Part shown: in pieces, positions 16,169 through 36,343 of the stretch
How positions within the stretch are numbered: position 1 is the stretch's first letter
Layout: each line of letters opens with the position of its first letter
From: Opitutus sp. GAS368
GTDB taxonomy: Bacteria; Verrucomicrobiota; Verrucomicrobiia; Opitutales; Opitutaceae
Direction of reading: 5' to 3'
Assembly: GCA_945859965.1 (NCBI GenBank)
Contig: CAMAPG010000001.1
Span: 1 to 62,255 of the forward strand
Length of the DNA stretch: 62,255 bases
Position numbers and translations under genes: made by a program
Notes under the pieces: model-generated
Told to the model about the DNA's origin: nothing
What the model saw: the letters and a program-made list of their open reading frames with translations, nothing else
The model's database searches: none

Positions 16169-16200
16169 CCGCCTCCGGTTTCCCTGCGTGCAGATAGCCC

Positions 16201-18675: not shown

Positions 18676-18829
18676 GATGGTGCTTGGTGTTGAAGAGAGG
18701 CGGTTTTTTTTGAAGGGGAGGGGATCAGGATGCGGGGCTGGGCTCTCACACAACCCCGCACCCTTGTGAATTTCCGAATGCCGATTTCCGGGCCGGGTTT
18801 CCCCGGCGGCGGTGATCGGTCATGCGCGG

Positions 18830-19705: not shown

Positions 19706-19788
19706 ATTTGTGTGTTGAGAGCGGGTATTATTCGGGCGGGAGTATTACTTTAGGAAGTTTTTTTCCGGACCGACGGGCCGAATGCTTT

Positions 19789-20349
19789 TCAAATGGATCG
19801 CTCCCGTTGGGAGGCAATGGAGGGGAGGGATTGGAGAAGACCTTCGCGGGCGGCGGGGATGCGGTGGCAGGCGCGGGCGAGGGCCATGATCGGCGAGGTG
19901 TCGGGATTTTGGATGCCGAGCAGGCGGGCGAGCTCGCTTTCAAAATGAAGCAGCGCCCGCCGGGATGCGGGCTTTTCGCCGAGATGCGAGAGCGCGCGGC
20001 GGAGAAGATCGAAAAGATCCGCCGCGGGATGTTCAAGCTCGGTGAGGTCGTCCATCAATTCGACGAAGTAGGAGGCGAGTGCGAGGCGCGGGTATTCGCG
20101 GCGGAGGCCGTCGCGGGGATCGGTGAGGGCGCATTCGCGGAGGGAGTGGAGATCGGATTTCGCGCTGCGGGAAAAGCTGATTTCGCAGTCGAAAAAGAGA
20201 TCAAGTGTGCCGGCGAGGCGGCTTTTCGGGCGGAGGGCGCCTTTCGCGAGCGTCTTCAGTTTGCCGTGCGCGGCGGTGAACCACGTGACGATGAGGCTTG
20301 TGTCGCCGAAGCGGATTTTGCGGATGAGAATTGCGGGTGTGGTTTCCAC
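19789..20349 (-). CDS. recO: DNA repair protein RecO
   Basis: PAILIRKIRFGDTSLIVTWFTAAHGKLKTLAKGALRPKSR is the RecO N-terminal OB-fold signature. The GTG at 20349 sits right before it. ATG 20451 is an alternative start, and the longer track ORF (to 20520) is unlikely. Confidence 0.8.
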   Translation of the reverse strand: METTPAILIRKIRFGDTSLIVTWFTAAHGKLKTLAKGALRPKSRLAGTLDLFFDCEISFSRSAKSDLHSLRECALTDPRDGLRREYPRLALASYFVELMDDLTELEHPAADLFDLLRRALSHLGEKPASRRALLHFESELARLLGIQNPDTSPIMALARACHRIPAAREGLLQSLPSIASQRERSI

Positions 20350-20518
20350 GAAGCGCGGACGAGGATGCGCGGGGTGCGGCGGGCGTGAAAGGCGGAAGAT
20401 GGGGCCTGGCGGAGGACTGTGGAGACCCCGGAAATTTTCCCAAGAAACCATTTGCAAGGGTGCAGGTGCTCGGCTATCGGACGCGGCCCACAACCAAGTG
20501 AAACAAACCAAAAACAAC

Positions 20519-20857
20519 ATGAGCGATAAAAAAGAAGAACAAAAACAGGCCGAGCAGGCCCCACAAACTCCGGCACCAGCCCAGGCTCAGGTGCAGGTGG
20601 ATACCACCGGGATGAAGAGCGGTTACGCCAACGTGGTTGGCATCGCTGCGAACATCAACGAGGTGTATCTCACCTTTGGGGTGAACAGTGATCCTTACAA
20701 TCCGACCCCGAGCGAGCCCGTGAAGCTCGACAACCGGGTGATCATGACGCCAGATGCGGCGAAGCGCCTCTGCCTGAATCTCAATGCCACGCTTGCTGCT
20801 TTCGAGCAGCGGTTTGGCGTGATCGAACTCGACCTCCAGAAACGCATCCGCAGCTAG
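20519..20857 (+). CDS. DUF3467 domain-containing protein
   Basis: 112 aa from ATG 20519. GYANVVGIAANINEVYLTFG ... NRVIMTPDAAKRLCLNLNATLAAFEQRFGVI matches the DUF3467 pattern (YaN...h...Ef.ldF ... RiimtP.hAKrL...L......yE..fG.I). Confidence 0.75.
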   Translation: MSDKKEEQKQAEQAPQTPAPAQAQVQVDTTGMKSGYANVVGIAANINEVYLTFGVNSDPYNPTPSEPVKLDNRVIMTPDAAKRLCLNLNATLAAFEQRFGVIELDLQKRIRS

Positions 20858-20884
20858 TTGGCTGGGGAGTTTGCAGTTCATTTT

Positions 20885-20926
20885 CCGGCGGCGGAAGGCG
20901 TGCATGCCTTCCGCCGCCGGTCTTTT
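20885..20926 (+). terminator. Rho-independent terminator downstream of the DUF3467 gene
   Basis: A perfect 15-bp stem, CCGGCGGCGGAAGGC (20885-20899) pairing with GCCTTCCGCCGCCGG (20906-20920), has a 6-nt loop. It is followed by TCTTTT, 28 nt after the stop codon. Confidence 0.7.
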
Positions 20927-21491
20927 GTACCCCAATATTCCGGCAGACATTTTTCAAGATCGCGCTCTTGCAGCCTCTGCCTTCCTCTCCGCTGCCAGCA
21001 TGAGCGGGAGCCGAGGCGGGAAAGAGCGATCCGTGCGCGATTGATCCCGCGTTTCTCTCCACACATTTCTAAGAAAACTCTCCAGCAAGCCGTGCATCAA
21101 AGGATGTTTCACCACCCATCCAACGAATTCCCGCGGGATGCGATGGCAGCGCGCAATTTCATTCAGAGCACTCTTTACAGCATGGACGTTTGCGTTAAAC
21201 AGGCTGCACACTTTTATCCGGGCATTGTGCGGCGACCTGACTTTCGCCTATGCCCGTCCCACAGCGAATCACTCTTGAATCCTCTGCTCGCAATGAATCT
21301 TCCGCGAAAATGCGGGCGTACCGCCGCCGGTATCGCCTGCGGGCGTGTCACTCAAGCAACCGGACGTGGAGCCCGCTTCCTCCCGGTCTGCCAGCCAATT
21401 TCGCGGAAAAATCTTTACGCCGCGCCGGAGGGCGGCATTTCTCCGTCCGGTCATTTTACAACTCAACCCGCCTCTTCCGCCGCCTGATCTG

Positions 21492-24400
21492 ATGAATACC
21501 AAGTACAACCGTCCCTCCGTGGAGCCACTCGAGAGCCGCATTGCTCCAGCCCGTGTCATTGAAGTGGGGTTTCCAGGCGCGTCGAACGATACGGATTACT
21601 CCGAGGCAGCACCCTCCGGGGAAGTTTTACATTTCGTAAATCTGGAGACTGCATCCGGCGCGGATCTGATCGCTGCGGCCGTAGGCAAGGGGATCGGCGG
21701 TCTGGCGGATACATTTTATATCCGCATGTCGGCCGGGGATGTGATGGAGCTTTTCCGCGGGGGCGGAGGTGCGTCCACGGAGCCGTTATTGATCGTGAAT
21801 TCAGGCAACATCGTCGCGTTTTTCACCGACAAGAATCTCGATGACGAAGTGCAGGAGAGTGAGATTACGGGGATTTCGGCGGGGAAAAACGCGTCGTTCG
21901 AGCTGCGGGCCGCTTTGCCAGGTGATGTCGTGGTCAACCTCGATGAGAGGGGGACGAAAGACCAGGCGGATGACACGCTTTGGATGGGCGCCGGGCCGGT
22001 TCCCGCGGGACTTGGGATCAAGTCTGTGAAGATCGGCAGCTCCGTGGGCGGATCGGTGGACGAAGGGGTCTTGTTTCAAATCGCGGCGGAGACCATTGCC
22101 GGGGGAGTGGGAGTGCAGGAGGTGCAGGATTTCAGCATCAGTACGGCACAGGGGAGAATCGGGCAGACCTTCCGTATTTCCTACGGAGCATATACGACGG
22201 CCTCGCTTGTCGTCGTAACGTCGGCGGCGGAGATCGAGGCCGCAATCAATGGCTTGAAGGCGGTCAAGGATGCGGGCGAAGTCACGGTGACGAGCGCTGC
22301 GAATGGACAGTTCACCGCCACGTTCAAACTCACCGGGGCGCAGGCGGATCTTTTTGAGGTGCATGCCGACGCGGTGATAGATTTTACCGCCTCGGAAGTG
22401 ACGCCGGGAGGAGTGGCTGAACAAGAGGTGCAATCTGTGGACATCGGGTCGCTAGCAGGCGAGTCGGGCCAGTTGACTTTCTCGTTTGGGGTGGAGAGTT
22501 CGGCCCCTCTGAGGTTCGACGCGACTGCGGAGGAGATTGAGACGGCGTTGAATCTCCTAAACACAGTCAGCGGCGTGGGTGGAGTGACCGTTATAAGGCC
22601 GAGTGGCGGCCTCTTTTTGATCACTTTCAACGAACCCGGCGACCAGGCTGAATTGTTCGCTGCACATGCGGAGCAGTTTGTCGTCGGCAGCGTGGGTGGC
22701 AACATCCTCGCGAGTGGGAGCATCAGCAATATCAACGTGGCGGGCGGAGTTCAGCGGATCCTTGCGGGCTCGGCGGCCAACGGGCAGACGTTCGATTTCT
22801 TCCCGAAATATACCACCAGCTCGGGCGTCGTTGTGGACACTCCTGGCGGCGATGGGCTGTTTTCCTTCGCCCCTCTCACGGGCATGGCAGGTTCAGGGAT
22901 TTCAAATATCATCGTGGATCGCCTGGGTGCGGGCGGCGACAATGTGGGGATGATCCACGCGGGAGATGGCGGGGATGGCGCAAATGGCGGCTCGCTCAAT
23001 CTAATCGAAATCCGAAGAGATTCCGACGGTTTCAGCCTTCTAGCAGGTGACGGAGGCAACTCCGGTGGCCTGAAGAAGAATGGGGGGCATGGGGGAGGGG
23101 TCACCAAAGTGTATGCTCATGGGAACCCTGATGCCTCCGGAAACGACCTGATCACGGTCGCAGCGGGTGCTGGTGGAGATTCTGCGACAGCCTTGGGGGG
23201 GCGCGGTGGTTCCATTGCCGACCTCAACATTGGCTACGAGCTGGCGGGGAAAAATCTCATCCTCTCCGAGGGTGTCTTGCGTGACAATGTCATCGTTCTT
23301 TCGGGTGATGGCGGCGATGGAAAAGTTGGAGCGTCCGGTGGCTCGCTGACCAAAATCAACATCACGATCAGCGCTCCCGACCTGGCCGGGGACGAGGTGC
23401 AGGTCTTTGCGGGAGACGGTGGCGATGGGCAGTCGGTGAGGGGAGGACGTGGTGGCACTGGCGGAACGATCAGCCGGTCGTTTTTTCAAAACGTGGATAT
23501 CACCCCCTCGCATGAGATGACGATCATGGCCGGAGCCGGAGGGCTCGCTGGGACGAATGCGATCGGGGCTGCCGGTGGATCCGTTCTCGATCTGACTCTC
23601 ACGGGCCGGTGGTTCGACATCGGGGCCGGGGATGGCTCTGATGGCAAGAAGGGCGGATTGGGCGGTTCGATCAAGGCAATCACCTTTGTCACGGTGAACA
23701 GTGTCATCACGGACACCGCCATGATCAATGCGGGCCGCGGTGGGGACGGGCTTGGGGGCAACGCCGGCAACGGCGGCATGGTCGCAGGCGTGGACCTGCC
23801 CGACTCCGATTTGTTCAACTTCATCATCAACGATGAAATGCTCGGCAAGGGCGACGGAGGAACTGGTTCTGGCGGCAGGGGAGGAAACGGTGGAGGCATC
23901 AGCAACATTTCTGTCACAGACTCCGAATTCGGCGTCGCACGCAATGCCGCGAATCTCTACAGCGTTCGTGGAGGTGCGGGCGGTTCTGGTGACAAAGGGG
24001 GCGGAGCGGGCGGCTCACTTGCAGAATTGCTCTTCTCCGGCTCAGGAATCGAAGTGGAGGTCACTGCCGGTGACGGTGGCGACGCGGACATCAAGGGGCC
24101 CGGCGGGAAGGCAGGCAGCATAGCCAGGTCTTCGTTTTTTACTGAAGGCACCGTACTCAGGACGGTCTCGGGAGTCCCCGTGCAGGTGGCAGCAGATGGT
24201 TTTGTCCGCGCTGGTGCAGGCGGAGATGGCGCGGGAGCAGGTGGGGCTGGCGGTTTGGGCGGCGAGGTTTCAACAGTGGATCTCAACACTGAAGGAACAG
24301 CAGGCGTTTTTGGTGGAGACGGCGGCAATGGTTCCGGTGCCGGATCCGGTCGCGGTGGCAGTTTGAATCGCGTCGGACTTTTCGCAACGAACGGCGACGG

Positions 24401-27400
24401 TACTATGATCGCTGGCGATGCCGGAACCATTGGCACCAAGCCGGCCGCCGGCGGCAGCATCCGAGGCACCACGGATGAACAAGTGTCCGGTGCATTTGCC
24501 GCACTGAATGTTACTGTCCGCGCCGGGGAGGGTGCAAACGGCGGCGCAGGGGGAAGCATTGATCAGTTTGGCTATGGCAGCACTGGAGCCACGCTGGTGC
24601 CCACACCGCTTGGGAATATCATCATCATGGCTGGTGACGGCTCGGAATCTGGAGACGGCCGTAATGTGGGGGCTGGGGGATCCATCAAGAACATCAACGG
24701 TTCGGTGAGTTTTACCTCCGGAACCACCACGACCATCCAGGCAGGCGAGGGCGGTTCCACGCCCAAGAAAGGTGGAGCGGGCGGCGACATCAAAAATCTT
24801 TCCCTCCAGCGTGGTGGCAACCCCGGAGTCGAGGTCAGCATTGTGGCCGGAGATGCCGGGGATTCTCCCGCGGGAGCAAGGGGCGCCAAAGGAGGCAGTG
24901 TGGACGGAGTCACGGTGATCGAGATGGATCGGGCTGCAATTCTTCGACACATCACCGCCGGCAACGGAGGAGATGCGCTGAAAATGGGAGGCCCCGGGGG
25001 TAGCGTGACCAACGTCAACGTGGTGAATCACGATATCGGTCTTCGCTCCGGCGCGGCCTACGGTTACGACTCGATGGGAGGCATTTTTGCCGGCGCTGGT
25101 GGCAGCGGCGACACCAAAGGCCTCGCAGGGAACGTCATCAGTGTGTCTGCCGACGCGATCGGGTCCATCGTCGCAGGCCGGGGTGCGGCGCCGGAACTCG
25201 TCAACAAGGTTGAGAGCATTTATCTCAATGATTCGAATCTGCTCATTGAAAAGGACGGCGCTTTCACTGAAGACGGCATCCCAGGAGCCAAGGAGGAGCA
25301 GCAATTTACGCCGGCGAGCGGCTTCCAGTTCCAGATTACGTTTGGTGAATACACCACCGGGAACCTCCAGCCCAACAGCACCACGGCCCAGGTGGAGGCA
25401 GCCCTAAACTTACTTCTGTCCATCAGCAGCATAGGCGGGGTGACGGTCACCAAGCCTGTCGGCCCATCAGCATACAAGATCACATTCAACGAAGTCGGAG
25501 ACCGGCAGCCGCTCCAGATATCCAACCAGCTCAACGTGATCGAGGTCGCACGGGGCGACGATGAGCCTCCCATCATGGAGAAGCAAACGGTCCAACTTGA
25601 TCCGACATTGTTCAGCAGCATCACGGCAAAATTTGGTGGATCGAGTGCATTCTTCAGTGATGCGTCCCTGATCACAGCCGGTTCCCTGGAAACCGGCCTG
25701 AATGCCATGGCAAGCGTCATGGATCTCCTTGGCGTCACCGTTACCGACCTGCCGAACTCCAGTTTTGAAATCACTTTCAACGAGCCGGGTAATCAAGCCC
25801 CGTTCAATTTCGGGGCGCACAATTCCCCCTCCGGCTTTGCCACCGAGATCACCGATGGCACAAATAACACCCAGATCATCTACATCAACGGGGCTGAACG
25901 TACCATCCCGCTGAACAAGGATGCCGCACCAGTGGACGTGGCGAATGCGCTGAACGCGCTGCCTTCGATCATTGCGGCTGGTGGAGTTTCAGCGACTGCG
26001 CTGCTACCCAATGGATATCAGGTGGTCTTCCTGGCTCCCGGGGACAATCCGCAGATTACAGCGGAGGAATTTGTTGGCGTGAATGCTGCCGTGGAATTGA
26101 CTGGAGAGGCGAACACCCAACTCAAAGTTTTTGAATTGCTCCAAGGCAGCACAACGACTCAGGTGAAAGAGGTTCAAACCGTGCGGATTGATCCGTTGCT
26201 GCTTGGCCGGGTCAACGTGAACTTCGGACCAAGTGTGGCATCCTTTAGCAGCGCAGACCAGATCACCGCCGCGACCCTCAATTCGCGCCTGAATCTCCTC
26301 CCAACGATTATCACAGCCGGCGGGGTCACGGTTTTGGCGCAGGAGAACCACACTTTCCGAATCACGTTTGATCAGTTTGGCGACCAGATCCCGATCCATG
26401 TCGAGGGAGATGACTTTCTACTGGGGAGTGCGGCGGAGATTGTTGCCGGCGATTCTGTCACCCAGGAAATACAGAGGTTCACGCCGATTGCAGGCGGGAG
26501 CTTCCAGGTTAACTTCGGTGCGGACACGACCAACCTCATCGTCTCCACGAGCACAGCCATCCAGGTGCAGTCCTTGCTCAACGCGCTTCCATCCATCAGC
26601 AGCATCGGCGGCGTTACGGTCACTCAGGACATCGGGACAGAAGGATACGCGGTGACCTTCAATCAGAATGGAGATCGCGCGCCACTCTCCGTGACCAATC
26701 GCACGGGAATTGCGGGCTCTTTGCTGACTCAGGCGTCTGCGGCGACCCTCACGCTCGGTGACCCTGTCACCAATGAGGTTCAGCGCATTTCGCTTCCGAG
26801 CACCGGATTTATCGCACTTTCCTTTACGGGCCTGGAGACCTCGCAGACCAGCTTCATGCCCCTTAATTCCAGCGCTTCATTTGTCGAGGCTTCACTCAAT
26901 GCGTTACCCTCCGTCATCGCGGCAGGCGGCGTGACGCTCACTGTTTCTCCCGGCGGAGATTTTTACGAGATCGCTTTCAACGAACCCGGTTCGCGAAACC
27001 AATTTAACGGCACTGCCATCGAGGTGGAACAAACGGTCACTGAACTCTTCCATGGAATGAATCGTCTCGCGGCATTCGAAGTCCAGAGTATTGAGTATGA
27101 CTTGAATGGCGAGTTCACGGTGACGTTCCCGGTTGCCTTGACGGCGGTTGAAAACCTTCAAGGGTTCTCCGGCGGCCGCGAGGGGCAGCTACTGGATCTC
27201 AGCTCAGTTCAGGCAATAGGCGCGGCCACGTTCACGTTAAGCTTTGGCGATGACACAACGAATCCACCATTGAGTGCGAATGCGGATGCTGCTGCGATCC
27301 AAGCTGACCTCAACCTCCTCCCCTCGATCATTAGTGCCGGCGGCGTAACGGTTGATCTTGTGAGCCCGGGGTTGTTTTCGATTACTTTTGGGAACCTTGG

Positions 27401-28472
27401 AGATCAACCTGGCGTCATTACTGGTGCCGTGACAGGAAGCGAAGTCACTGGTCCGATCAACGGTAATGACACGCCGGATAACGTCCGGATGGCTTTGGAG
27501 GATGCGCTCAATCAGTTGCCATCCGTGATCGCGTCCGGCGGTGTGAGCGTCGCGCTCCCCAGCGAGAAGAATTCGCTGAACGTGATATTCAATACCATCG
27601 GCAACAAGCCGTCCCTCACCGCGGTGAACAACTCATACGAAGTCCAGACAATCGCCCTGTTCTCCACCGGGGAATATGAACTCTCATACGGTGCCGCCAC
27701 AACCCTGCGTCTGCCCGCGGGATCAACGACCGGAGAAATCGAATCTGCACTCAACAGCCTGGCTGGTTTCCCTGCCGGGGGTGTTGTTGTTACCAACGGG
27801 TTCGGCGAGGATTTCACGATTACCTTCAACGATGCCGGGGATTTCAATCTCATCACCGCCCGGCAGTTCTTCCCCACTGACGCCATCACAGTGCAGGAGG
27901 GCACCTCGGGACCCGCAGGTTTGCAGGAAAAACAGGAAATTAGACAGCCGATCGGACACCTGTTCGATCAGGAGAACTTTGCAACAGCCAACTTGGTCGG
28001 CGGCTTCAACGACGCCACCGAATTCGATGCGTTTAAATTCAAATGGCAGGATGCCAACAACAACGAGCTTTACGATCTTGGGGAAATTCCAATTGACGGC
28101 CTCATCGTTGCGAGGACTTACAACTCGGCGCTTATCAACTTGATCCCCGAGGCGCGATATACGGGAGGCGAATTCACTTTTGTATCAATCACCGAAGGTG
28201 GACCTGCCATTGCGGAGGTGCAGGAGCTCACGATAAAGGCGGACAAGTTCACACTTGTGTTCGGTGATGATGAGACTGGCTCACTCTCTGGGAAAGCGAA
28301 GCCCAGCGCAGTGGCTGCGGCATTGAATGCGCTTCCGGCCATCATCGCGGCCGGCGGTGTCACCGTCACTTCCAGCGCGGTGGATACCTACAGGATCACA
28401 TTCAACGTCGCCGGGGCGCGAGACCCGGTTCTGGCCCCGTTCTTCTACGACTTTAACAACATCCTCCAATAA
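21492..28472 (+). CDS. giant repetitive surface/secreted protein (2326 aa): LEPR-XLL-like N-terminus, head domain, ~740-aa Gly-rich solenoid-like region, at least 12 copies of an unassigned ~95-aa module
   Basis: Uninterrupted 7-kb frame. The first ATG (21492) gives MNTKYNRPSVEPLESRIAPA with no hydrophobic signal peptide. The Gly-rich AGDGGDG..GG.GGS units span ~22926-25150. The modules (EVQ...F.L.FG..TT......A..IE.ALN.LPSI...GGVTVT.....F.ITFN..GD) lie at ~22113-22658 and ~25292-28472. Confidence 0.85.
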   Translation: MNTKYNRPSVEPLESRIAPARVIEVGFPGASNDTDYSEAAPSGEVLHFVNLETASGADLIAAAVGKGIGGLADTFYIRMSAGDVMELFRGGGGASTEPLLIVNSGNIVAFFTDKNLDDEVQESEITGISAGKNASFELRAALPGDVVVNLDERGTKDQADDTLWMGAGPVPAGLGIKSVKIGSSVGGSVDEGVLFQIAAETIAGGVGVQEVQDFSISTAQGRIGQTFRISYGAYTTASLVVVTSAAEIEAAINGLKAVKDAGEVTVTSAANGQFTATFKLTGAQADLFEVHADAVIDFTASEVTPGGVAEQEVQSVDIGSLAGESGQLTFSFGVESSAPLRFDATAEEIETALNLLNTVSGVGGVTVIRPSGGLFLITFNEPGDQAELFAAHAEQFVVGSVGGNILASGSISNINVAGGVQRILAGSAANGQTFDFFPKYTTSSGVVVDTPGGDGLFSFAPLTGMAGSGISNIIVDRLGAGGDNVGMIHAGDGGDGANGGSLNLIEIRRDSDGFSLLAGDGGNSGGLKKNGGHGGGVTKVYAHGNPDASGNDLITVAAGAGGDSATALGGRGGSIADLNIGYELAGKNLILSEGVLRDNVIVLSGDGGDGKVGASGGSLTKINITISAPDLAGDEVQVFAGDGGDGQSVRGGRGGTGGTISRSFFQNVDITPSHEMTIMAGAGGLAGTNAIGAAGGSVLDLTLTGRWFDIGAGDGSDGKKGGLGGSIKAITFVTVNSVITDTAMINAGRGGDGLGGNAGNGGMVAGVDLPDSDLFNFIINDEMLGKGDGGTGSGGRGGNGGGISNISVTDSEFGVARNAANLYSVRGGAGGSGDKGGGAGGSLAELLFSGSGIEVEVTAGDGGDADIKGPGGKAGSIARSSFFTEGTVLRTVSGVPVQVAADGFVRAGAGGDGAGAGGAGGLGGEVSTVDLNTEGTAGVFGGDGGNGSGAGSGRGGSLNRVGLFATNGDGTMIAGDAGTIGTKPAAGGSIRGTTDEQVSGAFAALNVTVRAGEGANGGAGGSIDQFGYGSTGATLVPTPLGNIIIMAGDGSESGDGRNVGAGGSIKNINGSVSFTSGTTTTIQAGEGGSTPKKGGAGGDIKNLSLQRGGNPGVEVSIVAGDAGDSPAGARGAKGGSVDGVTVIEMDRAAILRHITAGNGGDALKMGGPGGSVTNVNVVNHDIGLRSGAAYGYDSMGGIFAGAGGSGDTKGLAGNVISVSADAIGSIVAGRGAAPELVNKVESIYLNDSNLLIEKDGAFTEDGIPGAKEEQQFTPASGFQFQITFGEYTTGNLQPNSTTAQVEAALNLLLSISSIGGVTVTKPVGPSAYKITFNEVGDRQPLQISNQLNVIEVARGDDEPPIMEKQTVQLDPTLFSSITAKFGGSSAFFSDASLITAGSLETGLNAMASVMDLLGVTVTDLPNSSFEITFNEPGNQAPFNFGAHNSPSGFATEITDGTNNTQIIYINGAERTIPLNKDAAPVDVANALNALPSIIAAGGVSATALLPNGYQVVFLAPGDNPQITAEEFVGVNAAVELTGEANTQLKVFELLQGSTTTQVKEVQTVRIDPLLLGRVNVNFGPSVASFSSADQITAATLNSRLNLLPTIITAGGVTVLAQENHTFRITFDQFGDQIPIHVEGDDFLLGSAAEIVAGDSVTQEIQRFTPIAGGSFQVNFGADTTNLIVSTSTAIQVQSLLNALPSISSIGGVTVTQDIGTEGYAVTFNQNGDRAPLSVTNRTGIAGSLLTQASAATLTLGDPVTNEVQRISLPSTGFIALSFTGLETSQTSFMPLNSSASFVEASLNALPSVIAAGGVTLTVSPGGDFYEIAFNEPGSRNQFNGTAIEVEQTVTELFHGMNRLAAFEVQSIEYDLNGEFTVTFPVALTAVENLQGFSGGREGQLLDLSSVQAIGAATFTLSFGDDTTNPPLSANADAAAIQADLNLLPSIISAGGVTVDLVSPGLFSITFGNLGDQPGVITGAVTGSEVTGPINGNDTPDNVRMALEDALNQLPSVIASGGVSVALPSEKNSLNVIFNTIGNKPSLTAVNNSYEVQTIALFSTGEYELSYGAATTLRLPAGSTTGEIESALNSLAGFPAGGVVVTNGFGEDFTITFNDAGDFNLITARQFFPTDAITVQEGTSGPAGLQEKQEIRQPIGHLFDQENFATANLVGGFNDATEFDAFKFKWQDANNNELYDLGEIPIDGLIVARTYNSALINLIPEARYTGGEFTFVSITEGGPAIAEVQELTIKADKFTLVFGDDETGSLSGKAKPSAVAAALNALPAIIAAGGVTVTSSAVDTYRITFNVAGARDPVLAPFFYDFNNILQ
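21522..21551 (+). other. N-terminal EPLESRIAPA motif (LEPR-XLL-like putative sorting signal) of giant protein 1
   Basis: These are residues 11-20 of the 21492 CDS. A near-identical EPLEARIAPA sits at residues 12-21 of the next CDS. Confidence 0.5.
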
Positions 28473-28508
28473 ATCGCGGAAGCCAAAAGACACGAATATC
28501 TCAATCAT

Positions 28509-31500
28509 ATGTCCCGGACCAAAACCCAACTTTCCCGCATCGAACCACTCGAGGCCCGCATCGCACCCGCGGCGGTATTTGCCAATCCAATCGATGCCAA
28601 ATGGCGGGCCGCGACTGTAGGCTCGCCGGTTGTACTTCACGCCGGAGAGGGTCTCAGCACCCTGGGTGACAAGGCAGGCAGCTACCTCCTTTTCGTGGAA
28701 CAGGGGAACGTCATGGTTTTCACCACTGATTTCAACAACAACAACCTCGTTGATACGAATGAGATCACCGGCCTTGCCGCTGGAGACGGCCTCCGGCTGA
28801 TTTCGTTCGTGGACATTCACGGAGACATCGTCACAAATCTGGTCGAGAAAACCATCGGAGGCGGCACCTTCCTGACCCTGAGTGACTCCGATCGGAATCC
28901 CACTAACGACGACCCCCGGCTTCAGGGGGACGGACGCGTGATCCTGCCCAAGACCATTGAAAAAATCGAATTCCGCCCATTGGCGATTACCGACATACCT
29001 GACCAGGATGGTGTGGGGCCGGATGACGATGGCGATGGGGTGATTGATAGTCCGGATGCTGTTGACCTCGCATTCCGAACAGTGCCTTGGAGCTCCTACT
29101 CGATTTTTGGGAGTATCATCGCTGGCGGAGGATTTGGTGCAGATGACGGAGGGCTGCTGCTTAATCCTCCGGAGGACGACCGTTATATCCCCACAGTGGA
29201 TGCAATCTACACAGGCAGCGCAACCTCCGGCAAATTTTTCAGCTTCGGTGTTTCCAGTGAATATGTCGTGAGCGGCTTCAAATTCGGTGATGATGTCAAC
29301 GGGGTGACCGGCTCATTTATCCCGACCCGTGGTCAGGCGGGCGCGAGCATTAACACGGTCAAGGGCAGCAGTCCGTACAACATCGGAACGCTCCAGGCAG
29401 GGAACGGTGGAAGCGGTGCGCCGGGCGGCAGCATCTTGAATGTCACAATCAACGGCGACAATGCTGGCGGGTATAACATCATCGCTGGCGATGGCGGAGA
29501 CGGACCCAATGGCGGGAACGGTGGTTCGATCACCAATTTCAGCGACCTGGGATCCGTCACGGGGTTCACCTACATTAGCACTGGCAGTGGTGGCTTTGGA
29601 GCCACCGGCCGTGGCGGGAGCGGTGGCGATGCGGAGTTTGGACCTATGAGCATACGCGGTGATGTTCACATTGATCTCGGCGATGGAGCCACCGGTTTCT
29701 CCGCCGGTGGCAACGGGGCCAGTCTTTCCAAGGTGATTTTCTCCGATCCTCCCGGAGTTGTGGATCCGATAACCGGCGCCATAACGGACGTTCCAGTGAG
29801 AGGCACCAATGGCTTTGGCACGACTCACTATCCTGATTCCTCGATACCGGGTGCTTATAACGCGAACAATATCGGCACCCACATGGCGCTTGATTTCGAC
29901 GGGGATGGGATCGGCGACTTTGTCTATATCACTGGTGCGGACCCAACCAACGTGGAGGCTGGCTCAAACTCTGCGCTGGTTGTGCTTCTCGGCGCACCAC
30001 CAACGGATCCGGCCTTCCCGGGATATCGCACTTTAACTGCGCCCGACGGAAGTGTGTCATCCGGAATTTCCCTCAATGGTCCGCGCAACCCGAAGGCACT
30101 GGCGACTGGTGATCTCAACGGTGATGGCCATCCGGACATCGTGGTCGGTTCCACCGACCCAGGAGGAAGCGGAGACCTGATGGTATTCCTGGCCAAGTTC
30201 GAGGATGTGAACAATGACGGGGTGCTGGTTGCCACGGAGGACTTGAATCGCAATGGGACGGACGATTTTATCGGCTTCTGGGAGGCGCGCCATAGCACAT
30301 TGCCGATCGTCGGCAGCAACAGCATGTCCATGGAGGATCTCACTATTGGTGACTTCGATGGGAACGGACGTCCTGAGATCGTCGTAGCAACCAATTCCAA
30401 CCTGGTGTTCCTCACTGCGGACATGGAGAAAGAGCCCGTGAACCAGCGGTTTGAATACACTGGGCAATTTTTCGCAGACTTCGGCACCAAGGCGGTTCGC
30501 GCCTCCATCGGCGGGAGGGACATTAGCGTTCCCGCAGTGAACTACACTCCTTATGTTCCATCTCCTGGATCAGGAGCTGTGCTGGAAGCCAGCCCTCTCT
30601 CGAGCATAGATTCGACCCATGATGTGGTGTTTGCCACCTCTGAGGGAGGTCAGGATGTCCTCGTCATCGAGTGGACGGAACACAGTGCGGAAAATCCAGT
30701 GCCAACCGTGAACGAAAACGGCCCTTTTGGCGTCGGCATTCCGATCCATGACTTCACAGTTGCCGACATAGACAATGACGGAGATGCCGATCTCTACGCC
30801 ATTAGCAACCGCAGAGACACCGCATTCGGGCCATTCTGGAGCCTGGAATTTTCCAGGGGCAACGGTCTTGGCCTTGGTATAAGTGGCTTTTCCTTTGGCG
30901 GTTTCTCTCTTCCCCTGCATTCCATCCGCAGCATGGATGTGGACGGCGATGGGAACCCAGGTGAAGCGCTGGTTCTCGACCAGGTTAATGGCTTGAGCTA
31001 TGGTATATTGGTTTTTGACGAATTCTTCCCCGAGTTCGCCGAGGTCGTGGTGACCGGGATCCTCCCAACGGGGATACCGGGCATGGTTCTGGGGCAGGCG
31101 GCAGAAGGTGCCCCTCATCCTACCGGGTTCGTGGACTCGCGCCCCATCTTTGTGGGGCGCTCCACAGCAACGATCACGGCGGCCGATTCGATTTCGCAGA
31201 ACCTGTATTCGTTCTATGTGGAGGATGGGGAGGAGATTGACAGGCAGCCCTTGGTGGACTACAGCCTCAGCCTGCACACAGGTGCGGGAGGAAATTCGCT
31301 GCACGGCCGTGGCGGTGCGAGCGGATTTCTTGGAGGAAAGGCCATCCTTGTTGACGTCGTGGATCCAGTCACCGGGGAACCAGTGATTGATCCGGCAACG
31401 GGGAAAGCATTCAAGAACCTTGTGGGTGCTGTCCAGCTCACCGCCCTCGGCCCAATCAGTCTGGTTGCGGAAGACGGTGGTGAAGGGTTTTCAAGTGGCG

Positions 31501-33230
31501 GGGTCGGCGGTTTTATTGCTGGTGTAACCATCACAGGAGGCTCCGCGCATTCACTGATTGCCGGAAACGGCGGACGCGGTGTCTCTGGTGCAGGCGGTGC
31601 GGGCGGCAGCCTGCTCTCCAATTCGATCGAATCACTCGGTGCCCCAGTCACGTTCCGGGCAGGGGACGGTGGAGTTGGTCGGATCGGCGGCACTGGCGGT
31701 TCTGTGGTCGGGAATGGAACTGGCATATTCGATACCTTAGCTCCTGCTGTGGACGTCTTCTCCGGTGCTGGCGGGCTTGGTACAAGAGGGGGAGGGAACG
31801 CTGGAACGATCTCCGGCTTTTCTGCCAAAATTGTGAACCCGGGTTTGGGGGCGCCGAGCTATCTCAATTATGTCGGCGCCAATGGGGGTGATACTGTCTT
31901 CGGCAAAGGGGGAGACGGGGGAAGTATTGTGAACAGCAGTCCGCAAGGTGGTACCCAACTGGGAGGCGACATCAACATCAAAGGCGGTGATGGTGGCAAG
32001 GGTGCTACAGGCGGTGCCGGTGGTTCCATTACGGCATTCGTCAATCGCCCGGACGGCAGCAGCACTATTTTCAATCCCGGCTACGGCAGCTTCCTTGGAG
32101 GTACAGGAGGCAATGGCACTTCAGCCAGCGGAGGCAGGGGGGGAAGCGTCAGCGGGATCGAGACACCCACTCTTGGAGATCCAGCTGGAAGCCCAAGCTT
32201 TTACCGGTTCGTATTCTCGCGAATCATCGCAGGTGCCGGCGGTACCAGTTCGAGCGCAAAGGGAGGCGATGGAGGTGATGTCGCCAATGTGATCACGAGT
32301 TCCCAGCTCGGTTCATGGGTGCTCGTCGGGGGCGCCGGCGGCCAGGGTCTTTTCCTTGGCGGGAAAGGTGGTTCGGTGACCAATGCAAGCCTCACCATCG
32401 GCGGCGCATCCACCTTCTCGAAAGGTCTGTTTGTCGGAGGTGCAGGAGGCAATGCGGGCGCATTCATCCCAAACATTGACGACGCCACGCCCAAGCAATT
32501 CCGCAATCAATTCGGCGGACGTATTGGACGCGGCGGTGATGGAGGGAACGTCGTTGGGATCGTGCAGGAGAATGGAATCGCCGCGCACATTGACCTCATC
32601 GCGGGTGATGGGGGAGACACGATCCATTATGGGACGCCCTTTGACAAACCGAAAGTCAGCTACGTCGGGAAAGGCGGTTCCATCCGGGACATCCGGCTCG
32701 CCGGCGAAGCAGGGAACATGGATCCTGCAATCGGCATCAAGAGCTATAACAATATTTTTGCCGGCGAATCTGTTGACGACTTTGTTCGCAACGAGCTGGT
32801 GAACCCGGCAGGTTTGCCCGCCTTTCTTACAGACTCGGTCGGGAACGTCGGCGTCATCGTCGGTGCCGCGGGTCGCAACAAGTCCGTCATCCTTGATCCC
32901 GTTGACGCGCCGACCACCTACCGCAGTCTTCCCGCACGATTTGCGACGAATGGCTCGCTGGAAAATTTCACAGCCCGCAATCTCATGTCCGCCGTTGCTG
33001 GAAGCGTGGATCGCATTGCCTCCATCCAACTTGTCAAAGGCCTCAATGTCGCCCAGCAGGTTGGCGTGGACAAGCTGGGTGGCGACTTTCTGGATGAAGA
33101 CCTGGCTCCGACCGTCAGCGGTGAGCCGGTTATCGGTGGACGCAACATCAATGGGGCGATTATCGCGAAGCAGTATGTCAACCTGCTCGGCGCATCGGTC
33201 CCACCGCCGCAGAACGGCTTCATCCGTTAA
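28509..33230 (+). CDS. giant repetitive surface/secreted protein (1573 aa): LEPR-XLL-like N-terminus, head domain, Gly-rich blocks flanking an FG-GAP/VCBS beta-propeller region
   Basis: Starts 36 nt after the previous stop with MSRTKTQLSRIEPLEARIAPA and no signal peptide. FG-GAP-type repeats (DFDGDGIGDFVYI, GDLNGDGHPDIVVGS, GDFDGNGRPEIVVAT, ADIDNDGDADLYAIS, MDVDGDGNPGEALVL) lie at ~29871-30996. Gly-rich units lie at ~29390-29740 and ~31266-32700. Confidence 0.85.
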   Translation: MSRTKTQLSRIEPLEARIAPAAVFANPIDAKWRAATVGSPVVLHAGEGLSTLGDKAGSYLLFVEQGNVMVFTTDFNNNNLVDTNEITGLAAGDGLRLISFVDIHGDIVTNLVEKTIGGGTFLTLSDSDRNPTNDDPRLQGDGRVILPKTIEKIEFRPLAITDIPDQDGVGPDDDGDGVIDSPDAVDLAFRTVPWSSYSIFGSIIAGGGFGADDGGLLLNPPEDDRYIPTVDAIYTGSATSGKFFSFGVSSEYVVSGFKFGDDVNGVTGSFIPTRGQAGASINTVKGSSPYNIGTLQAGNGGSGAPGGSILNVTINGDNAGGYNIIAGDGGDGPNGGNGGSITNFSDLGSVTGFTYISTGSGGFGATGRGGSGGDAEFGPMSIRGDVHIDLGDGATGFSAGGNGASLSKVIFSDPPGVVDPITGAITDVPVRGTNGFGTTHYPDSSIPGAYNANNIGTHMALDFDGDGIGDFVYITGADPTNVEAGSNSALVVLLGAPPTDPAFPGYRTLTAPDGSVSSGISLNGPRNPKALATGDLNGDGHPDIVVGSTDPGGSGDLMVFLAKFEDVNNDGVLVATEDLNRNGTDDFIGFWEARHSTLPIVGSNSMSMEDLTIGDFDGNGRPEIVVATNSNLVFLTADMEKEPVNQRFEYTGQFFADFGTKAVRASIGGRDISVPAVNYTPYVPSPGSGAVLEASPLSSIDSTHDVVFATSEGGQDVLVIEWTEHSAENPVPTVNENGPFGVGIPIHDFTVADIDNDGDADLYAISNRRDTAFGPFWSLEFSRGNGLGLGISGFSFGGFSLPLHSIRSMDVDGDGNPGEALVLDQVNGLSYGILVFDEFFPEFAEVVVTGILPTGIPGMVLGQAAEGAPHPTGFVDSRPIFVGRSTATITAADSISQNLYSFYVEDGEEIDRQPLVDYSLSLHTGAGGNSLHGRGGASGFLGGKAILVDVVDPVTGEPVIDPATGKAFKNLVGAVQLTALGPISLVAEDGGEGFSSGGVGGFIAGVTITGGSAHSLIAGNGGRGVSGAGGAGGSLLSNSIESLGAPVTFRAGDGGVGRIGGTGGSVVGNGTGIFDTLAPAVDVFSGAGGLGTRGGGNAGTISGFSAKIVNPGLGAPSYLNYVGANGGDTVFGKGGDGGSIVNSSPQGGTQLGGDINIKGGDGGKGATGGAGGSITAFVNRPDGSSTIFNPGYGSFLGGTGGNGTSASGGRGGSVSGIETPTLGDPAGSPSFYRFVFSRIIAGAGGTSSSAKGGDGGDVANVITSSQLGSWVLVGGAGGQGLFLGGKGGSVTNASLTIGGASTFSKGLFVGGAGGNAGAFIPNIDDATPKQFRNQFGGRIGRGGDGGNVVGIVQENGIAAHIDLIAGDGGDTIHYGTPFDKPKVSYVGKGGSIRDIRLAGEAGNMDPAIGIKSYNNIFAGESVDDFVRNELVNPAGLPAFLTDSVGNVGVIVGAAGRNKSVILDPVDAPTTYRSLPARFATNGSLENFTARNLMSAVAGSVDRIASIQLVKGLNVAQQVGVDKLGGDFLDEDLAPTVSGEPVIGGRNINGAIIAKQYVNLLGASVPPPQNGFIR
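28542..28571 (+). other. N-terminal EPLEARIAPA motif (LEPR-XLL-like putative sorting signal) of giant protein 2
   Basis: Residues 12-21 of the 28509 CDS; see the paired motif at 21522-21551. Confidence 0.5.
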
Positions 33231-33397
33231 TTTTCAAAACCGTAGCGCAAGCCCCCACCTGGAGCTCCGGACTGGGAGGAAGTCGCTGTCGCGCCAAAAT
33301 CATCGCCGCCTCCCTCCTGGGCTTCTCTCTCGCGTTGCTTGGGAATTGCTTCTGGAATGTCGCACTTTTTCCGCTTAGCATCTCCAACACCCGAGTC

Positions 33398-36343
33398 ATG
33401 AAAGCACACATCCTGTTCGCAAGTCTCATCTCTTTGCCGGGCGTCGCCGCAGATCTGCCGAAGGAGCAGGCGGAGTTTTACCTCAATACAATCCTGCCGA
33501 TTTTTTCGGAGAATTGCTACCGCTGCCACAGCGCGGAGGGCGGCAAGGACAAGGGAGGGCTGACGCTCGATACCAGGGAGGCGATGCTCAAGGGCGGCGA
33601 CACGGGGCCCGCGGTATCGCCGGGTGATCCGGGAAAATCGCTCATCCTCAAGGCAGTGTCTTACAAGGATCCCGATTTGCAGATGCCGCCCAAGGGCGAA
33701 AAACTCACGGCAAAGCAAATCACGGATCTCACCGAGTGGGTGAAAATGGGTGCGCCTGTCTCGTCCGATGCGAAGGCCGTGAAGTCCAAGCTCAGCGGCC
33801 TCACCGACAAGGCGCGCGCGCACTGGGCGTTTCAGCCGGTGAAGAAGCCAGCGGTGCCAATCAACAAAAACCAGCAATGGTGCAGGACGCGGGTGGACTG
33901 CTTCATTCTGCAGAAGCTCGAGCAGCAGGGGATGTTTCCATCCCCCGACGCCGAGCGGGCGACGCTGCTGCGGCGCGCGTATTACGATCTGATCGGAATT
34001 CCGCCGACGCCGGCGGAGATCCAGGCGTTTCTCGCGGACAAGGCGCCGAATGCGTGGCAGAAAATGGTCGAGCGGCTGCTCGCCTCCCCACACTACGGCG
34101 AGCGATGGGGGCGGCACTGGCTGGACACTGCGCGCTACAGCGACACGGTCGGCTCGAATGCAAACGGGGTTGACTACCGTTTTCCGCATGCATGGACGTA
34201 TCGCGACTGGGTGATCAAGGCGATGAATGACGACATGCCGTACGACCAGTTCATCATGCATCAACTCGCCGCGGACTACCTGCCGAAGGAAATGCAGGGG
34301 AGGAATAGCGAAAACCTCGCGGCGCTTGGATTCATCACGGTTGGCGAGCGATTTGGAAATGGGAACGACACGATCAACGAGCGGATTGACACGACGACCA
34401 AGGCATTTCAGGCGATGACCGTGTCGTGTGCGCGGTGTCACGACCACATGTTCGATCCCATCTCCCAGAAGGATTACTACGCGCTGCACGGGGTGTTCTC
34501 GAGCATCACGGAACCCGCGGTGAAACCGCAGGTGGGCCTGCTTCCGCCGCAGAAGGAATTGACCGAGTTCTACAAACTCGAAGCGGAGGCCATGAAGGAG
34601 GTCCGCGACGGATATTTCAACACGGTGGGAAAGATCAACGAGGGCTTCCGGCTGAAGGCGCCGCTTTATCTGGAGGCCCTGGCGCAATCGCGCGTGACGC
34701 CGCCGCCGGTCGCGGGTGCCCCGGCCGGGACGCAGCGGCAGCCGTCGCCTTACGCTGCTTTCCTCCGCGCAAACAGTCTCGAGGACGACACTGCTCGCGA
34801 GGTCGAGCGGCGTGCCAATCGCCGGGATGACCCGATCCTCGGCCCTTACGCAAGGTTCGTCGAGGTGCAGGGTGATTGGGAGAAAAAGGCGCCTGGAATC
34901 CTCGCGGATATTCAAGCGGGCTCGATGGGGAGTGGCAAAAAACGGATCAACCCGATCGTGGTTGCTGTGTTCAAGGACGCGAAGCCCACAAACATCCGCG
35001 ATGTGCGCAAGCTCTACGACAAAGTCTTTGCGGCGGCAGCGGCAAAATCGGCGTTTTGGCTGGGCGAAATGAAATCCAGCAGCAGCGGCAACATTGCCGG
35101 TGTGGATGAGGCAACGGCCGAGCTTCTGCAGGTGCCGCTGTCGGTCAGGCCGGGGGGCGGGATGGCGATGGCGGATTACCGCGCGGCAGTGGATCGCCTG
35201 CCGAACCGCAGCCGGGGCAATCTGCAGGGTGCGCTCGTCCGCTACAACGAACTCCAGCTCACGCACCCGGGCGCACCGGCCCATGCGATGATCGTGAAGG
35301 ATCAGGAAAAGCCAAAGGACTCGCCCGTCTTCATCCGCGGCCAGGCAAACAACCGTGGCGATGTCGTCCCCCGCCGCTTCCTCGAAATCCTCTCGCCGAA
35401 CCGCCATCCGGAGCCGTTCACCGTGGGCAGCGGGCGGTTCGAACTGGCGAAGGCGATCGCGGACAAGAAAAACCCGCTCACGGCCCGGGTGCTGGTGAAC
35501 CGGGTGTGGATGCACCATTTTGGCGAGGGCTTCGTCCCCACCCCCGAGGATCTCGGCACCATGAGCGAGAAGCCGACGCACCCCGAACTGCTCGATTACC
35601 TCGCTGATTACGTGATGGAGAACGGATGGAGCATCAAGAGCCTCCACCGGCTCATCATGAATTCCCGCGTCTATCAGGAAAGCAGCCACGCCATCCCCGA
35701 GTACGTGGAGAAGGATCCCCACAACAAGACACTCTGGCGCGCGAACATCCGGCGGCTCGATTTCGAGGCGGTGCGCGACACGTTGCTGGCATTCAGCGGG
35801 AATCTCGACAGGCAGCTCGGCGGCAAGCCGATCAATCTGACGCAGGAGCCTTATAGTTTCCGCCGCTCCGTGTATGGATATGTGGATCGCGGGAATCTGC
35901 CGGAGCTGATGGCGCACTTCGATTTTGCGAAGCCGGAGATGAGCAATTCAAAACGGACCAACACGCTCGTCCCACAGCAGGCGCTCTTCCTCATGAACAG
36001 CCCGATGGCCGTGGACATCGTGCGCCGGATGCTGGCGCGCCCGGAATTTGAAAGATCGAGGACCGACCTCGAAAGGATCCGCCTCCTGTACGAGATCATC
36101 TTCCAGCGCTATCCGACCAAGCAGGAGTTTGCGCTCGCGCTGGAGTTCGTGAAAAGCGAGGCGGCCGATGTCGAGGCGAACACCTTCAGCTACGACCGCA
36201 AGGTCCGCGAGGGCGGGGATCGCAACAACGGCCGGGCCGCGATCAAGAATGACGGGCTTCGCGTTGCCCGCCGTCCGCTGAATGCTTGGGAGACGTTCGC
36301 CCAAGTGCTGCTCTTCTCGAACGAGTCCGCTTACGTGAACTGA
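33398..36343 (+). CDS. PSD1-type protein: Planctomycete cytochrome c (PSCyt) + DUF1549 + DUF1553 domains
   Basis: 981 aa from MKAHILFASLISLPGVAA (signal peptide). ENCYRCH heme motif with LILKAVSYKDPDLQMPP is the PSCyt domain. WAFQPVKKP...RLLASPHYGERWGRHWLD matches DUF1549. CARCHDHMFDPISQKDYY and PTHPELLDYLA match DUF1553. Confidence 0.9.
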   Translation: MKAHILFASLISLPGVAADLPKEQAEFYLNTILPIFSENCYRCHSAEGGKDKGGLTLDTREAMLKGGDTGPAVSPGDPGKSLILKAVSYKDPDLQMPPKGEKLTAKQITDLTEWVKMGAPVSSDAKAVKSKLSGLTDKARAHWAFQPVKKPAVPINKNQQWCRTRVDCFILQKLEQQGMFPSPDAERATLLRRAYYDLIGIPPTPAEIQAFLADKAPNAWQKMVERLLASPHYGERWGRHWLDTARYSDTVGSNANGVDYRFPHAWTYRDWVIKAMNDDMPYDQFIMHQLAADYLPKEMQGRNSENLAALGFITVGERFGNGNDTINERIDTTTKAFQAMTVSCARCHDHMFDPISQKDYYALHGVFSSITEPAVKPQVGLLPPQKELTEFYKLEAEAMKEVRDGYFNTVGKINEGFRLKAPLYLEALAQSRVTPPPVAGAPAGTQRQPSPYAAFLRANSLEDDTAREVERRANRRDDPILGPYARFVEVQGDWEKKAPGILADIQAGSMGSGKKRINPIVVAVFKDAKPTNIRDVRKLYDKVFAAAAAKSAFWLGEMKSSSSGNIAGVDEATAELLQVPLSVRPGGGMAMADYRAAVDRLPNRSRGNLQGALVRYNELQLTHPGAPAHAMIVKDQEKPKDSPVFIRGQANNRGDVVPRRFLEILSPNRHPEPFTVGSGRFELAKAIADKKNPLTARVLVNRVWMHHFGEGFVPTPEDLGTMSEKPTHPELLDYLADYVMENGWSIKSLHRLIMNSRVYQESSHAIPEYVEKDPHNKTLWRANIRRLDFEAVRDTLLAFSGNLDRQLGGKPINLTQEPYSFRRSVYGYVDRGNLPELMAHFDFAKPEMSNSKRTNTLVPQQALFLMNSPMAVDIVRRMLARPEFERSRTDLERIRLLYEIIFQRYPTKQEFALALEFVKSEAADVEANTFSYDRKVREGGDRNNGRAAIKNDGLRVARRPLNAWETFAQVLLFSNESAYVN

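Follow-up and report, generated by a model that had tools for sequence, protein, structure and literature searches.

Paired giant proteins of Opitutus sp. GAS368 begin with a modular N-terminal tag in place of a recognisable Sec signal peptide

How could two giant bacterial proteins without a recognisable signal peptide leave the cell? The question is raised by a 62-kb stretch of DNA from Opitutus sp. GAS368 (Verrucomicrobiota; contig CAMAPG010000001.1, positions 1–62,255; hereafter the window), in which two adjacent forward-strand genes, A (21492–28472, 2326 amino acids (aa)) and B (28509–33230, 1573 aa), encode proteins that begin with almost the same decapeptide, EPLESRIAPA or EPLEARIAPA. 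Bacteria of the Planctomycetota–Verrucomicrobiota–Chlamydiota (PVC) group encode some of the largest bacterial proteins, and many of their giant proteins have no recognised secretion signal; an N-terminal ‘export motif’ has been noted since 2004, for which we know of no established mechanism. We examined A and B with their neighbours in the window and with related loci from other genomes and metagenomes (numbered L###). The explanation that we favour, with some confidence though far from certainty, is that A and B are co-transcribed, exported giants, probably located at the surface or outside the cell, in which a modular N-terminal tag replaces the Sec signal peptide. The locus is of interest because a sharply defined tag of this kind heads a two-protein module of deep conservation.

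A and B share a conserved N-terminal tag

Both genes were re-derived as open reading frames (ORFs) running from ATG to stop and separated by 36 nt (28473–28508), in agreement with an earlier note on this DNA, which had also placed the two decapeptides correctly. In A, the leader MNTKYNRPSV (21492–21521), which is kept in the orthologues P0001 and L128, runs directly into EPLESRIAPA (21522–21551, from residue 11); in B, MSRTKTQLSRI (28509–28541) runs into EPLEARIAPA (28542–28571, from residue 12). Both leaders, of 10–11 aa, are basic and polar, and a six-frame scan of the window found LExR[I]AP-type motifs in real ORFs only at these two tags.

The tag is strongly conserved. Among 116 full-length B orthologues, whose leaders measure 10 aa in the median and carry a net charge of +2, RIAPA is present in 116/116 although overall identity to B is 35–88%. 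In an alignment of head fragments comprising 70 family N-termini, each of the residues E, L, E, R, I, A, P and A reaches a conservation of at least 90%. The Ala, Pro, Arg and Leu positions show the full set of synonymous codons, and synonymous sites throughout the tag vary freely; it is hence the peptide that is under selection, and a DNA- or RNA-level origin of the motif was rejected.

No Sec-type signal peptide precedes or contains the tag

The earlier note had found no Sec-type signal peptide in either protein, and this was borne out. Using hydropathy only, we scored the longest run free of charged and amide residues within the first 60 aa; this was 7 residues in A and 10 in B, and neither N-terminus showed the h-region of a type I Sec signal (a basic n-region followed by about ten or more hydrophobic residues). 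In five exported neighbours, the uncharged runs in the first 60 aa are of 9–19 residues: the PSCyt1/2-PSD1 cytochrome, DsbD, beta-helix and FGE-sulfatase neighbours, with runs of 13–19 that end in AxA-type sites, and an S9 prolyl oligopeptidase. As these neighbours carry clear signal peptides, the organism uses ordinary Sec signals for other proteins. A hidden upstream signal peptide is impossible for B, since an in-frame stop lies 12 codons 5′ of its ATG. The frame of A is open for 49 further codons 5′ of its ATG, and A orthologues begin at the same MNxK(S/Y)NRPSVEPLE; with the start methionine shared, an upstream start is unsupported for A.

No transmembrane-like segment was seen in A or B, their C-termini included, and neither protein matched any Pfam or NCBIfam model for PEP-CTERM, LPXTG, the type IX secretion C-terminal domain, GlyGly-CTERM or RTX, so that the lack of a C-terminal sorting signal, as noted earlier, stands. 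In an AlphaFold model of the B head, residues 1–30 are disordered, with a predicted local distance difference test score (pLDDT) of ~50 (<50 over the tag region), which is consistent with a flexible leader. A resemblance to the (T/A/P)AA(G/V) site of LapG-type proteases was dropped, as it fits B (PAAV) and neither A (PARV) nor the family.

Could the tag itself be an atypical Sec signal? The leader, with its net charge of +2, would then be the n-region, IAPAxhh a very short h-region and A-P-A a signal peptidase I site of the AxA type. The 3–8 positions after RIAPA are indeed mostly small or hydrophobic, and APA fits the −3/−1 rule for this peptidase. However, the uncharged stretch spans only 4–10 residues, compared with 13–19 in the genuine Sec signals of the window, and in A orthologues Arg or Glu often interrupts it (IAPARVIE, IAPARILI); the acidic ExLE falls between the n-region and the supposed h-region, and the classical RxLL variants of the motif have no AxA site. 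Because the stretch is so short and so interrupted, we consider an atypical Sec signal unlikely.

The tag is widespread and modular

A degenerate DNA pattern for ExLExRIAPA, run over the GTDB species reference genomes, returned at least 120 loci. Among the matches listed, 71/74 in Verrucomicrobiota lie 2–40 aa after the start of long ORFs and 9/14 in Planctomycetota just after the ATG at the start of an ORF, with 8/39 at ORF starts in all other taxa; the nearest upstream ATG is a median of 9 residues away. The complete tagged ORFs among these (n = 47) have a median length of 655 aa (range 212–2039), 41 more extend beyond their 8-kb locus, and lengths reach >2400 aa.

What follows the tag falls into at least four unrelated types (FTVTxxxDSGxGSLRxA, SYTDxDGDxVTV, FAAVxxLxxLDGxxGF and the A and B head types), and the tag is therefore modular. 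In all, at least 80 further proteins, from two phyla and with unrelated domains after the motif, carry ExLExRIAPA at their head, and related genomes hold many other proteins that bear it. The sharply defined RIAPA form, which lies outside current models, is the norm in Verrucomicrobiota; a hidden Markov model (HMM) built for it would re-annotate hundreds to thousands of ‘hypothetical’ giants as probably exported.

One 8-kb locus from a Chthoniobacteraceae metagenome-assembled genome (MAG), L089, contains four RIAPA-type motifs, three of which head tandem paralogous ORFs of ~570–650 aa (of the IIVDSLLD.../FTVLNLNDAGVGSLRQA type); this locus shows a local expansion of tagged genes.

The tag resembles planctomycete export motifs but escapes their current models

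The earlier note had likened the decapeptide to the LEPR-XLL domain, and membership of that family did not hold. Full-length A and B did not match NCBIfam NF012209 (cut-off 17 bits), nor did their 50-aa N-termini at E ≤ 10, and it missed 68 of 70 family N-termini (2/70 matched, best E 0.12). The tag shares with LEPR-XLL (LEPR-8K) a short LE-x-R motif on giant proteins, placed at the extreme N-terminus (residue 11 in A and 12 in B, and likewise in 116 B orthologues), but has [SA]-R-I-A-P in place of P-R-x-L-L. Pfam PF07595 (Planc_extracel; gathering threshold 25.5 bits) matched neither A nor B nor any of 70 relatives, whereas a synthetic consensus peptide, used as a positive control, scored 34.3 bits; a Gemmataceae RIAPA N-terminus reached 12.9 bits over model positions 3–13 only.

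For Rhodopirellula, the consensus RRLxxExLExRxLLA has been described as a putative export signal of a new kind at the N-terminus (Studholme 2004, as cited in PMC8567305). Like Planc_extracel, the tag opens very large PVC proteins of a secreted type that have no normal signal peptide, and its core ExLExR is followed by a short hydrophobic or small stretch; unlike it, A and B have RIAPA instead of RxLLA and no Arg-rich RRL leader. A closer parallel is the variant LxLExLExRxxP, found on 52 proteins of Tuwongella immobilis, including 8 of the 10 longest (PMC8567305). Its core ExLExRxxP is matched exactly near the N-terminus by EPLESRIAP and EPLEARIAP, with the upstream LxL partly kept ([ILV] directly before the tag, at position −1); it differs in coming from a planctomycete (Gemmataceae), whereas the verrucomicrobial leader is shorter (median about 10 aa) and not Arg-rich, and IAPA is fixed. 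Proteomics detected 20 of the tagged Tuwongella proteins, 8 of which were seen solely in the SDS-soluble envelope fraction (PMC8567305). The earlier note had called the function and export route of the LEPR-XLL domain experimentally uncharacterised as far as known; the motif class is, however, one that the literature already covers. Neither Pfam nor NCBIfam holds an HMM for the LxLExLExRxxP variant, and searches of the literature for the motif strings and for DUF3467 (a neighbouring gene family, below) found nothing relevant beyond this paper.

Intermediate forms occur on homologous giants. Among the best 149 giant proteins that share a ~85-aa repeat with A (see below), 40 begin with RIAPA-type motifs, 8 with other RxxP forms (LEDRRTPT, LESRVTPT, LEGRFAPA and others) and 5 with classical RxLL. 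As the curated models miss A and B, class membership rests on resemblance to the consensus and on these intermediates; on this footing we treat the RIAPA tag as a putative, unmodelled variant of the planctomycete motif class, outside the families as their HMMs define them. The tag variant is new as a description, as are the conserved gene module, the unmatched head fold and the unmodelled repeat family set out below.

A and B are built like fibres or adhesins

The heads of A and B are homologous, as the earlier note had proposed, with modest similarity (BLASTP 45 bits at E = 9e-8; 31% identity across 154 aligned columns, 30% of them gaps, the tag lying within the alignment). The shared block, ~150 N-terminal residues, has an EF-hand-like loop at its centre (DKNLDDEVQESE in A, 21828–21863; DFNNNNLVDTNE in B, 28728–28763), in agreement with which weak EF-hand matches occurred in 9/70 relatives. 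A profile made from both heads recovered both head types from Verrucomicrobiota metagenomes (68 matches, N-terminal fragments). Gly-rich repeats are also common to the two proteins (secondary alignments in the same BLASTP comparison). Both have no Cys and 16–18% Gly, and contain DxNxN..E calcium-loop-like segments and beta-helix-like Gly-rich repeats. Searches of the A and B protein sequences against PDB gave no match.

In A, the type 1 head (21552–22133, delimited by comparison with B) is followed by two copies of the ~85-aa repeat (22134–22688), a Gly-rich zone of ~800 aa (22809–25196) made of h-x-AGxGGxG..GGxGGS-h units, and repeat copies 3–12 (25293–28463); repeats were placed by jackhmmer on A and alignment, and the Gly-rich zone, which we infer to be beta-helix-like, by motif positions. 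The extreme C-terminus, APFFYDFNNILQ (28434–28469), represents a pattern, F[FY]D.[DNT]N.., that ends 7/7 A orthologues. Orthologues in six other loci are 1122–2694 aa long, all tagged and all with the Gly-rich zone, and repeat number across A orthologues ranges from 0 to 14. A as a whole matched no Pfam or NCBIfam family, and neither database has a model for the repeat (consensus EVQ..h......F.L.FG...T..L....TA..hE.ALN.LPSI...GGVTVT......F.ITFN..GD). The repeat family is large: an exhaustive search found 3813 representative protein clusters at E ≤ 1e-3 and 1116 at ≤ 1e-10, with carriers of up to 7591 aa and up to 39 copies. Some carriers have eukaryote-looking N-termini, such as a TSP1-like, Cys-rich start.

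B is made up of the tag, a head of ~300 aa, repeats rich in Gly, an FG-GAP region and another Gly-rich zone, its second (31206–32708, from motif positions), together with a conserved C-terminal domain (aa 1357–1514, 32577–33050). The FG-GAP matches exceed Pfam gathering scores (PF13517, 28.4 bits against a cut-off of 26.9; PF01839, 27.7 against 22.1), the best repeats (aa 517–551, 30057–30161) lying inside a wider propeller-like region, and FG-GAP is also annotated, in precomputed form, in most B orthologues. The head (aa 31–330, 28599–29498) is mostly beta and was modelled by AlphaFold at pLDDT 86 and a predicted template modelling (TM) score of 0.84 (49 sequences); Foldseek searches with this model against PDB and BFVD gave no match (best E 0.5–1, TM ≤ 0.15). 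B has 305 homologues at E ≤ 1e-5. Among the best 120, 113/120 are 1500–1710 aa long and 116/120 are tagged, the other 4 being N-terminally truncated.

A and B form an ancient pair with a DUF3467 gene upstream

The 5′ neighbour of A (20519–20857, forward strand) encodes a 112-aa DUF3467 protein (PF11950, E 1.8e-14). The order DUF3467 (+), A-type, B-type is kept in 9/9 loci (the window and 8 related contigs), with A–B spacers of 18–36 nt; recO lies upstream and divergent in 7/9 of these, and the downstream genes vary. A followed by B was found in three further GTDB loci. A and B belong to two separate families, paired since ancient times and kept in the same order throughout Verrucomicrobiota, B having >120 orthologues of near-constant length. 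The earlier description of a paralogous surface or fibre pair holds for the PVC-type motif, the missing Sec signal and the exported-type composition; ‘paralogous pair’ understates the depth of the pairing. Synteny suggests that the two probably work together, B as the constant partner and A as the length-variable one.

Directly after the DUF3467 stop lies a terminator-like hairpin (20885–20920, forward strand; 16-bp stem with 13 GC pairs and a T-run), and a similar hairpin follows DUF3467 in L126. A hairpin of this strength indicates that DUF3467 and A–B are probably separate transcripts, whereas the A–B spacer holds no terminator-like site; A and B are probably co-transcribed, apart from DUF3467.

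DUF3467 is 70–90% identical to most of 78 homologues, even where B is only 37–66% identical. Its AlphaFold model (pLDDT 65) has four strands and one helix. Foldseek found no PDB fold matching this model, the protein sequence had no match in PDB either, and a SecB-like chaperone identity is accordingly unsupported. Our literature search found no paper on DUF3467 function.

An HlyD and site-2-protease triad adjoins A–B in some genomes

The earlier note had stated that no dedicated secretion, chaperone or processing genes flank the pair. The window indeed has no secretion genes tied to it, but the constant DUF3467 gene precedes A, and in other genomes A–B is flanked by a triad of genes, in the order GAF-HlyD, HlyD (~330 aa) and a fusion of an RRE-like/M50 site-2 protease to HlyD (~740 aa), where RRE stands for the recognition element of RiPPs, peptides that are synthesised on the ribosome and modified after translation. 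In a Chthoniobacter flavus MAG (L060/L010), a DUF3467-like gene, the triad (L060:1204–6482, with the protease fusion at 4266–6482), A and B follow in order; in a metagenomic locus, L129, B and A are convergent beside the triad (4758–10056); and in L132, L133 and L151, tblastn located the conserved C-terminal domain of B in ORFs ending about 130 nt 5′ of GAF-HlyD. The triad is thus beside A–B in at least 5 loci and three arrangements, against about 0.3 expected by chance among 80 loci, a rough estimate of our own that assumes a single B gene in each genome of ~5 Mb. In three PVC loci (L021, L055, L073), parts of the triad adjoin other tagged genes. DUF3467-like genes adjoin the triad in L060, L129, L130, L153 and L178, and in L115 such a gene lies ahead of another tagged gene. 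The triad was found in at least 34 of the loci L129–L208 and has at least 417 confirmed relatives in metagenomes.

The triad also accompanies tagged small peptides. ORFs of ~50 aa in Gemmatimonadota, among the matches listed in the GTDB scan, end in ...ELSVEELEERIAPA plus 4–10 residues, and a GAF-GAF-HlyD gene directly follows such RIAPA small ORFs in 5/5 loci, with HlyD and the fusion next where the contig permits. These ORFs look like precursors of short secreted peptides that have the same octapeptide as the end of their leader. They were observed in L044 (5274–5435 and 5525–5680, in tandem, ~50 aa), L068, L076, L104 and L117, as LTxEQKxQV+xATGKDAEAVELSVEELEERIAPA with a tail of 4–10 aa, 50–250 nt 5′ of GAF-GAF-HlyD. 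They adjoin a SARP/BTAD-AAA regulator.

The fusion protein keeps the HExxH and NPLLKLDGYY motifs of site-2 proteases and has a C-terminal HlyD/MacA/EmrA-like adaptor domain. Its N-terminal region matched NF041824, ‘daptide biosynthesis intramembrane metalloprotease’, at 166 bits (cut-off 300), as well as the YydH/LiaK RiPP protease family, and there was a weak RRE-type match to PaaA; no triad protein matched an NCBIfam equivalog above its cut-off. The fusion protease is the closest relative of the daptide leader peptidase. Daptide precursors carry the leader motif ELExMEAP, which is recognised by an RRE domain fused to the intramembrane site-2 protease MpaP, and the leader is cleaved after ELExxxxx (bioRxiv 10.1101/2023.03.08.531785; PMC12338566). 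PLE[SA]RIAP shares the register x-L-E-x-x-x-A-P, with L(−7), E(−6), A(−2) and P(−1) identical, from which cleavage after RIAP is predicted.

These parallels suggest a mechanism, which we put forward as a tentative possibility: ExLExRIAP(A) may be a leader peptide of the RiPP type, and the same may hold, more widely, for the PVC LExR class as a whole. The RRE-like domain of the intramembrane M50 (HExxH...LDG) protease–HlyD fusion would bind the tag, the protease would cut after RIAP, the two further HlyD-family proteins, one with GAF, would pass the substrate across the envelope, and DUF3467 might act as an accessory factor. If true, the leader-peptide logic of ~5-kDa peptides would be used for the export of proteins of 100–1000 kDa. 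The daptide system has a homologous protease, found here beside A–B or RIAPA small peptides in several genomes; it differs in acting on peptides of ~40–60 aa in Actinomycetota and Bacillota, with C-terminal Thr modification, whereas the substrates here would be of 120–280 kDa, the protease carries a fused HlyD domain and falls short of the family cut-off, daptide tailoring enzymes are absent, and the link is one of gene neighbourhood only. There would be no precedent for a site-2 protease with substrates of 250 kDa, and no energising transporter was seen in the triad. The triad is absent within 10 kb of A–B in the window and in 8 other A–B loci. At the remaining M50–HlyD loci, LExR..P and LE...AP motifs were not enriched, matches equalling a reversed-sequence control, so that any link between tag and triad is confined to certain lineages. 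With the triad and the daptide parallel, the question of export becomes concrete and testable as a new hypothesis.

Export through a tag is the most probable explanation of the locus

In our favoured explanation, that the tag takes the place of a Sec signal on exported giants, about 10 basic or polar residues followed by [ILV]-E-x-L-E-x-R-I-A-P-A would form a flexible leader, read by a shared cellular machine rather than serving as a structural part of each protein; it would represent a verrucomicrobial and Gemmata-type ‘RxxP’ variant of the planctomycete N-terminal export motif (Planc_extracel, LEPR-XLL class). The rest of A and B would be fibre- or adhesin-like, with a calcium-loop head and Gly-rich, beta-helix-like repeats, to which B would add an FG-GAP propeller and A 0–14 stalk repeats of ~85 aa. 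Several points weigh against this explanation. For A, B and their verrucomicrobial homologues, export, cleavage and surface location are predictions; A and B match neither curated motif model (NF012209, PF07595); the window has no secretion genes attributable to the pair; cooperation between A and B is deduced from synteny only; and in the Tuwongella fractionation only part of the tagged proteins were associated with the envelope (PMC8567305).

An alternative that gives the N-terminus another role is that the tag is an anchoring or assembly peptide, docking in an outer-membrane or cell-wall partner or donating a strand to a neighbouring subunit, while export is driven by another signal, such as the conserved C-termini, in the manner of a type I secretion system (T1SS), which takes the C-terminus first, as in LapA-type adhesins. 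The shared extreme C-terminus of A orthologues, the C-terminal domain common to B orthologues, the HlyD-family adaptors that adjoin A–B in some genomes and the Cys-free, Gly/Asp/Asn-rich composition would all suit this arrangement, and in a works-like comparison A and B resemble LapA/RTX-type giant adhesins in being very large, Cys-poor, calcium-binding and repeat-built, with a variable repeat number. They differ in that RTX repeats are lacking, the module contains no T1SS genes and none of the adhesin family models matched: no GGxGxDxUx (HemolysinCabind) Pfam match was found in A or B, no genes for ABC transporters, membrane fusion proteins or outer-membrane proteins lie around the pair in the window, and the conserved module has neither RTX nonapeptide repeats nor T1SS ABC or outer-membrane protein genes. 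Moreover, the same tag stands on small peptides and on proteins with unrelated C-termini, and is predicted to be disordered rather than docked. We regard an anchoring peptide as improbable, on a par with the atypical Sec signal.

A third alternative is that A and B remain intracellular, the tag serving targeting to an internal compartment, regulated degradation or control of translation. The proteins do lack a recognised secretion signal, and PVC bacteria have complex endomembranes. Their content is nevertheless of an extracellular type (FG-GAP, calcium loops, beta-helix repeats, no Cys), tagged Tuwongella proteins were found in the envelope fraction (PMC8567305), and the synonymous variation speaks against an RNA-level signal; the domain content in particular makes an intracellular role very unlikely. 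That the decapeptide is a functionless relic of gene duplication would account for the homologous heads of A and B, but mere paralogy is excluded for practical purposes by the presence of the tag on the at least 80 other proteins with unrelated domains in two phyla, and by its invariance across B orthologues down to 35% overall identity.

Surrounding sequence

Further features of the surroundings were recorded. The DUF3467–A intergenic region is 634 nt long in the window and 270–500 nt in other loci. It is filled by a 209-aa ORF (20858–21487, forward strand) with no coding-type GC pattern and no Pfam match; no gene is called at this position in related loci, and the ORF is probably non-coding. 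The search for a conserved element in this region found only a weak A-rich box in some loci, and none in the window. The box (TGATAAAAAAAT-like), ~60–80 nt 5′ of the A-type start in four related loci (L123–L127), may be a promoter element. An Rfam scan of the whole window found no family.

GC content is 0.56–0.60 over A–B (window ~20000–34000), compared with 0.62–0.67 in the flanks, and GC at third codon positions is 0.62–0.66 in A and B, compared with about 0.8 in neighbouring genes. Possible reasons are a bias of the giant genes in codon usage or amino-acid content, or a separate evolutionary history.

The S9 prolyl oligopeptidase, which has a signal peptide, is encoded 11 kb 3′ of the pair (44462–46576, forward strand). 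Since it is an endopeptidase that cleaves after proline, RIAP|A would in principle be open to it, but we found no link between it and the pair. In L126, a 1670-aa subtilisin (S8)/P-domain/Calx-beta/Big_7 protein (15015–20027) is encoded directly 3′ of the B-type gene, with a slight overlap, and other loci do not have it. Further downstream in the window, two tandem paralogues on the reverse strand (53283–57203 and 58293–62240; 1306 and 1315 aa) combine Big_7 immunoglobulin-like domains with a purple-acid-phosphatase/metallophosphoesterase domain; the two are nearly identical over their first 60 residues, which include an unusually long pre-signal extension (MPRPANRIHAEFQHAIMRTSIQHIAAGTI...).

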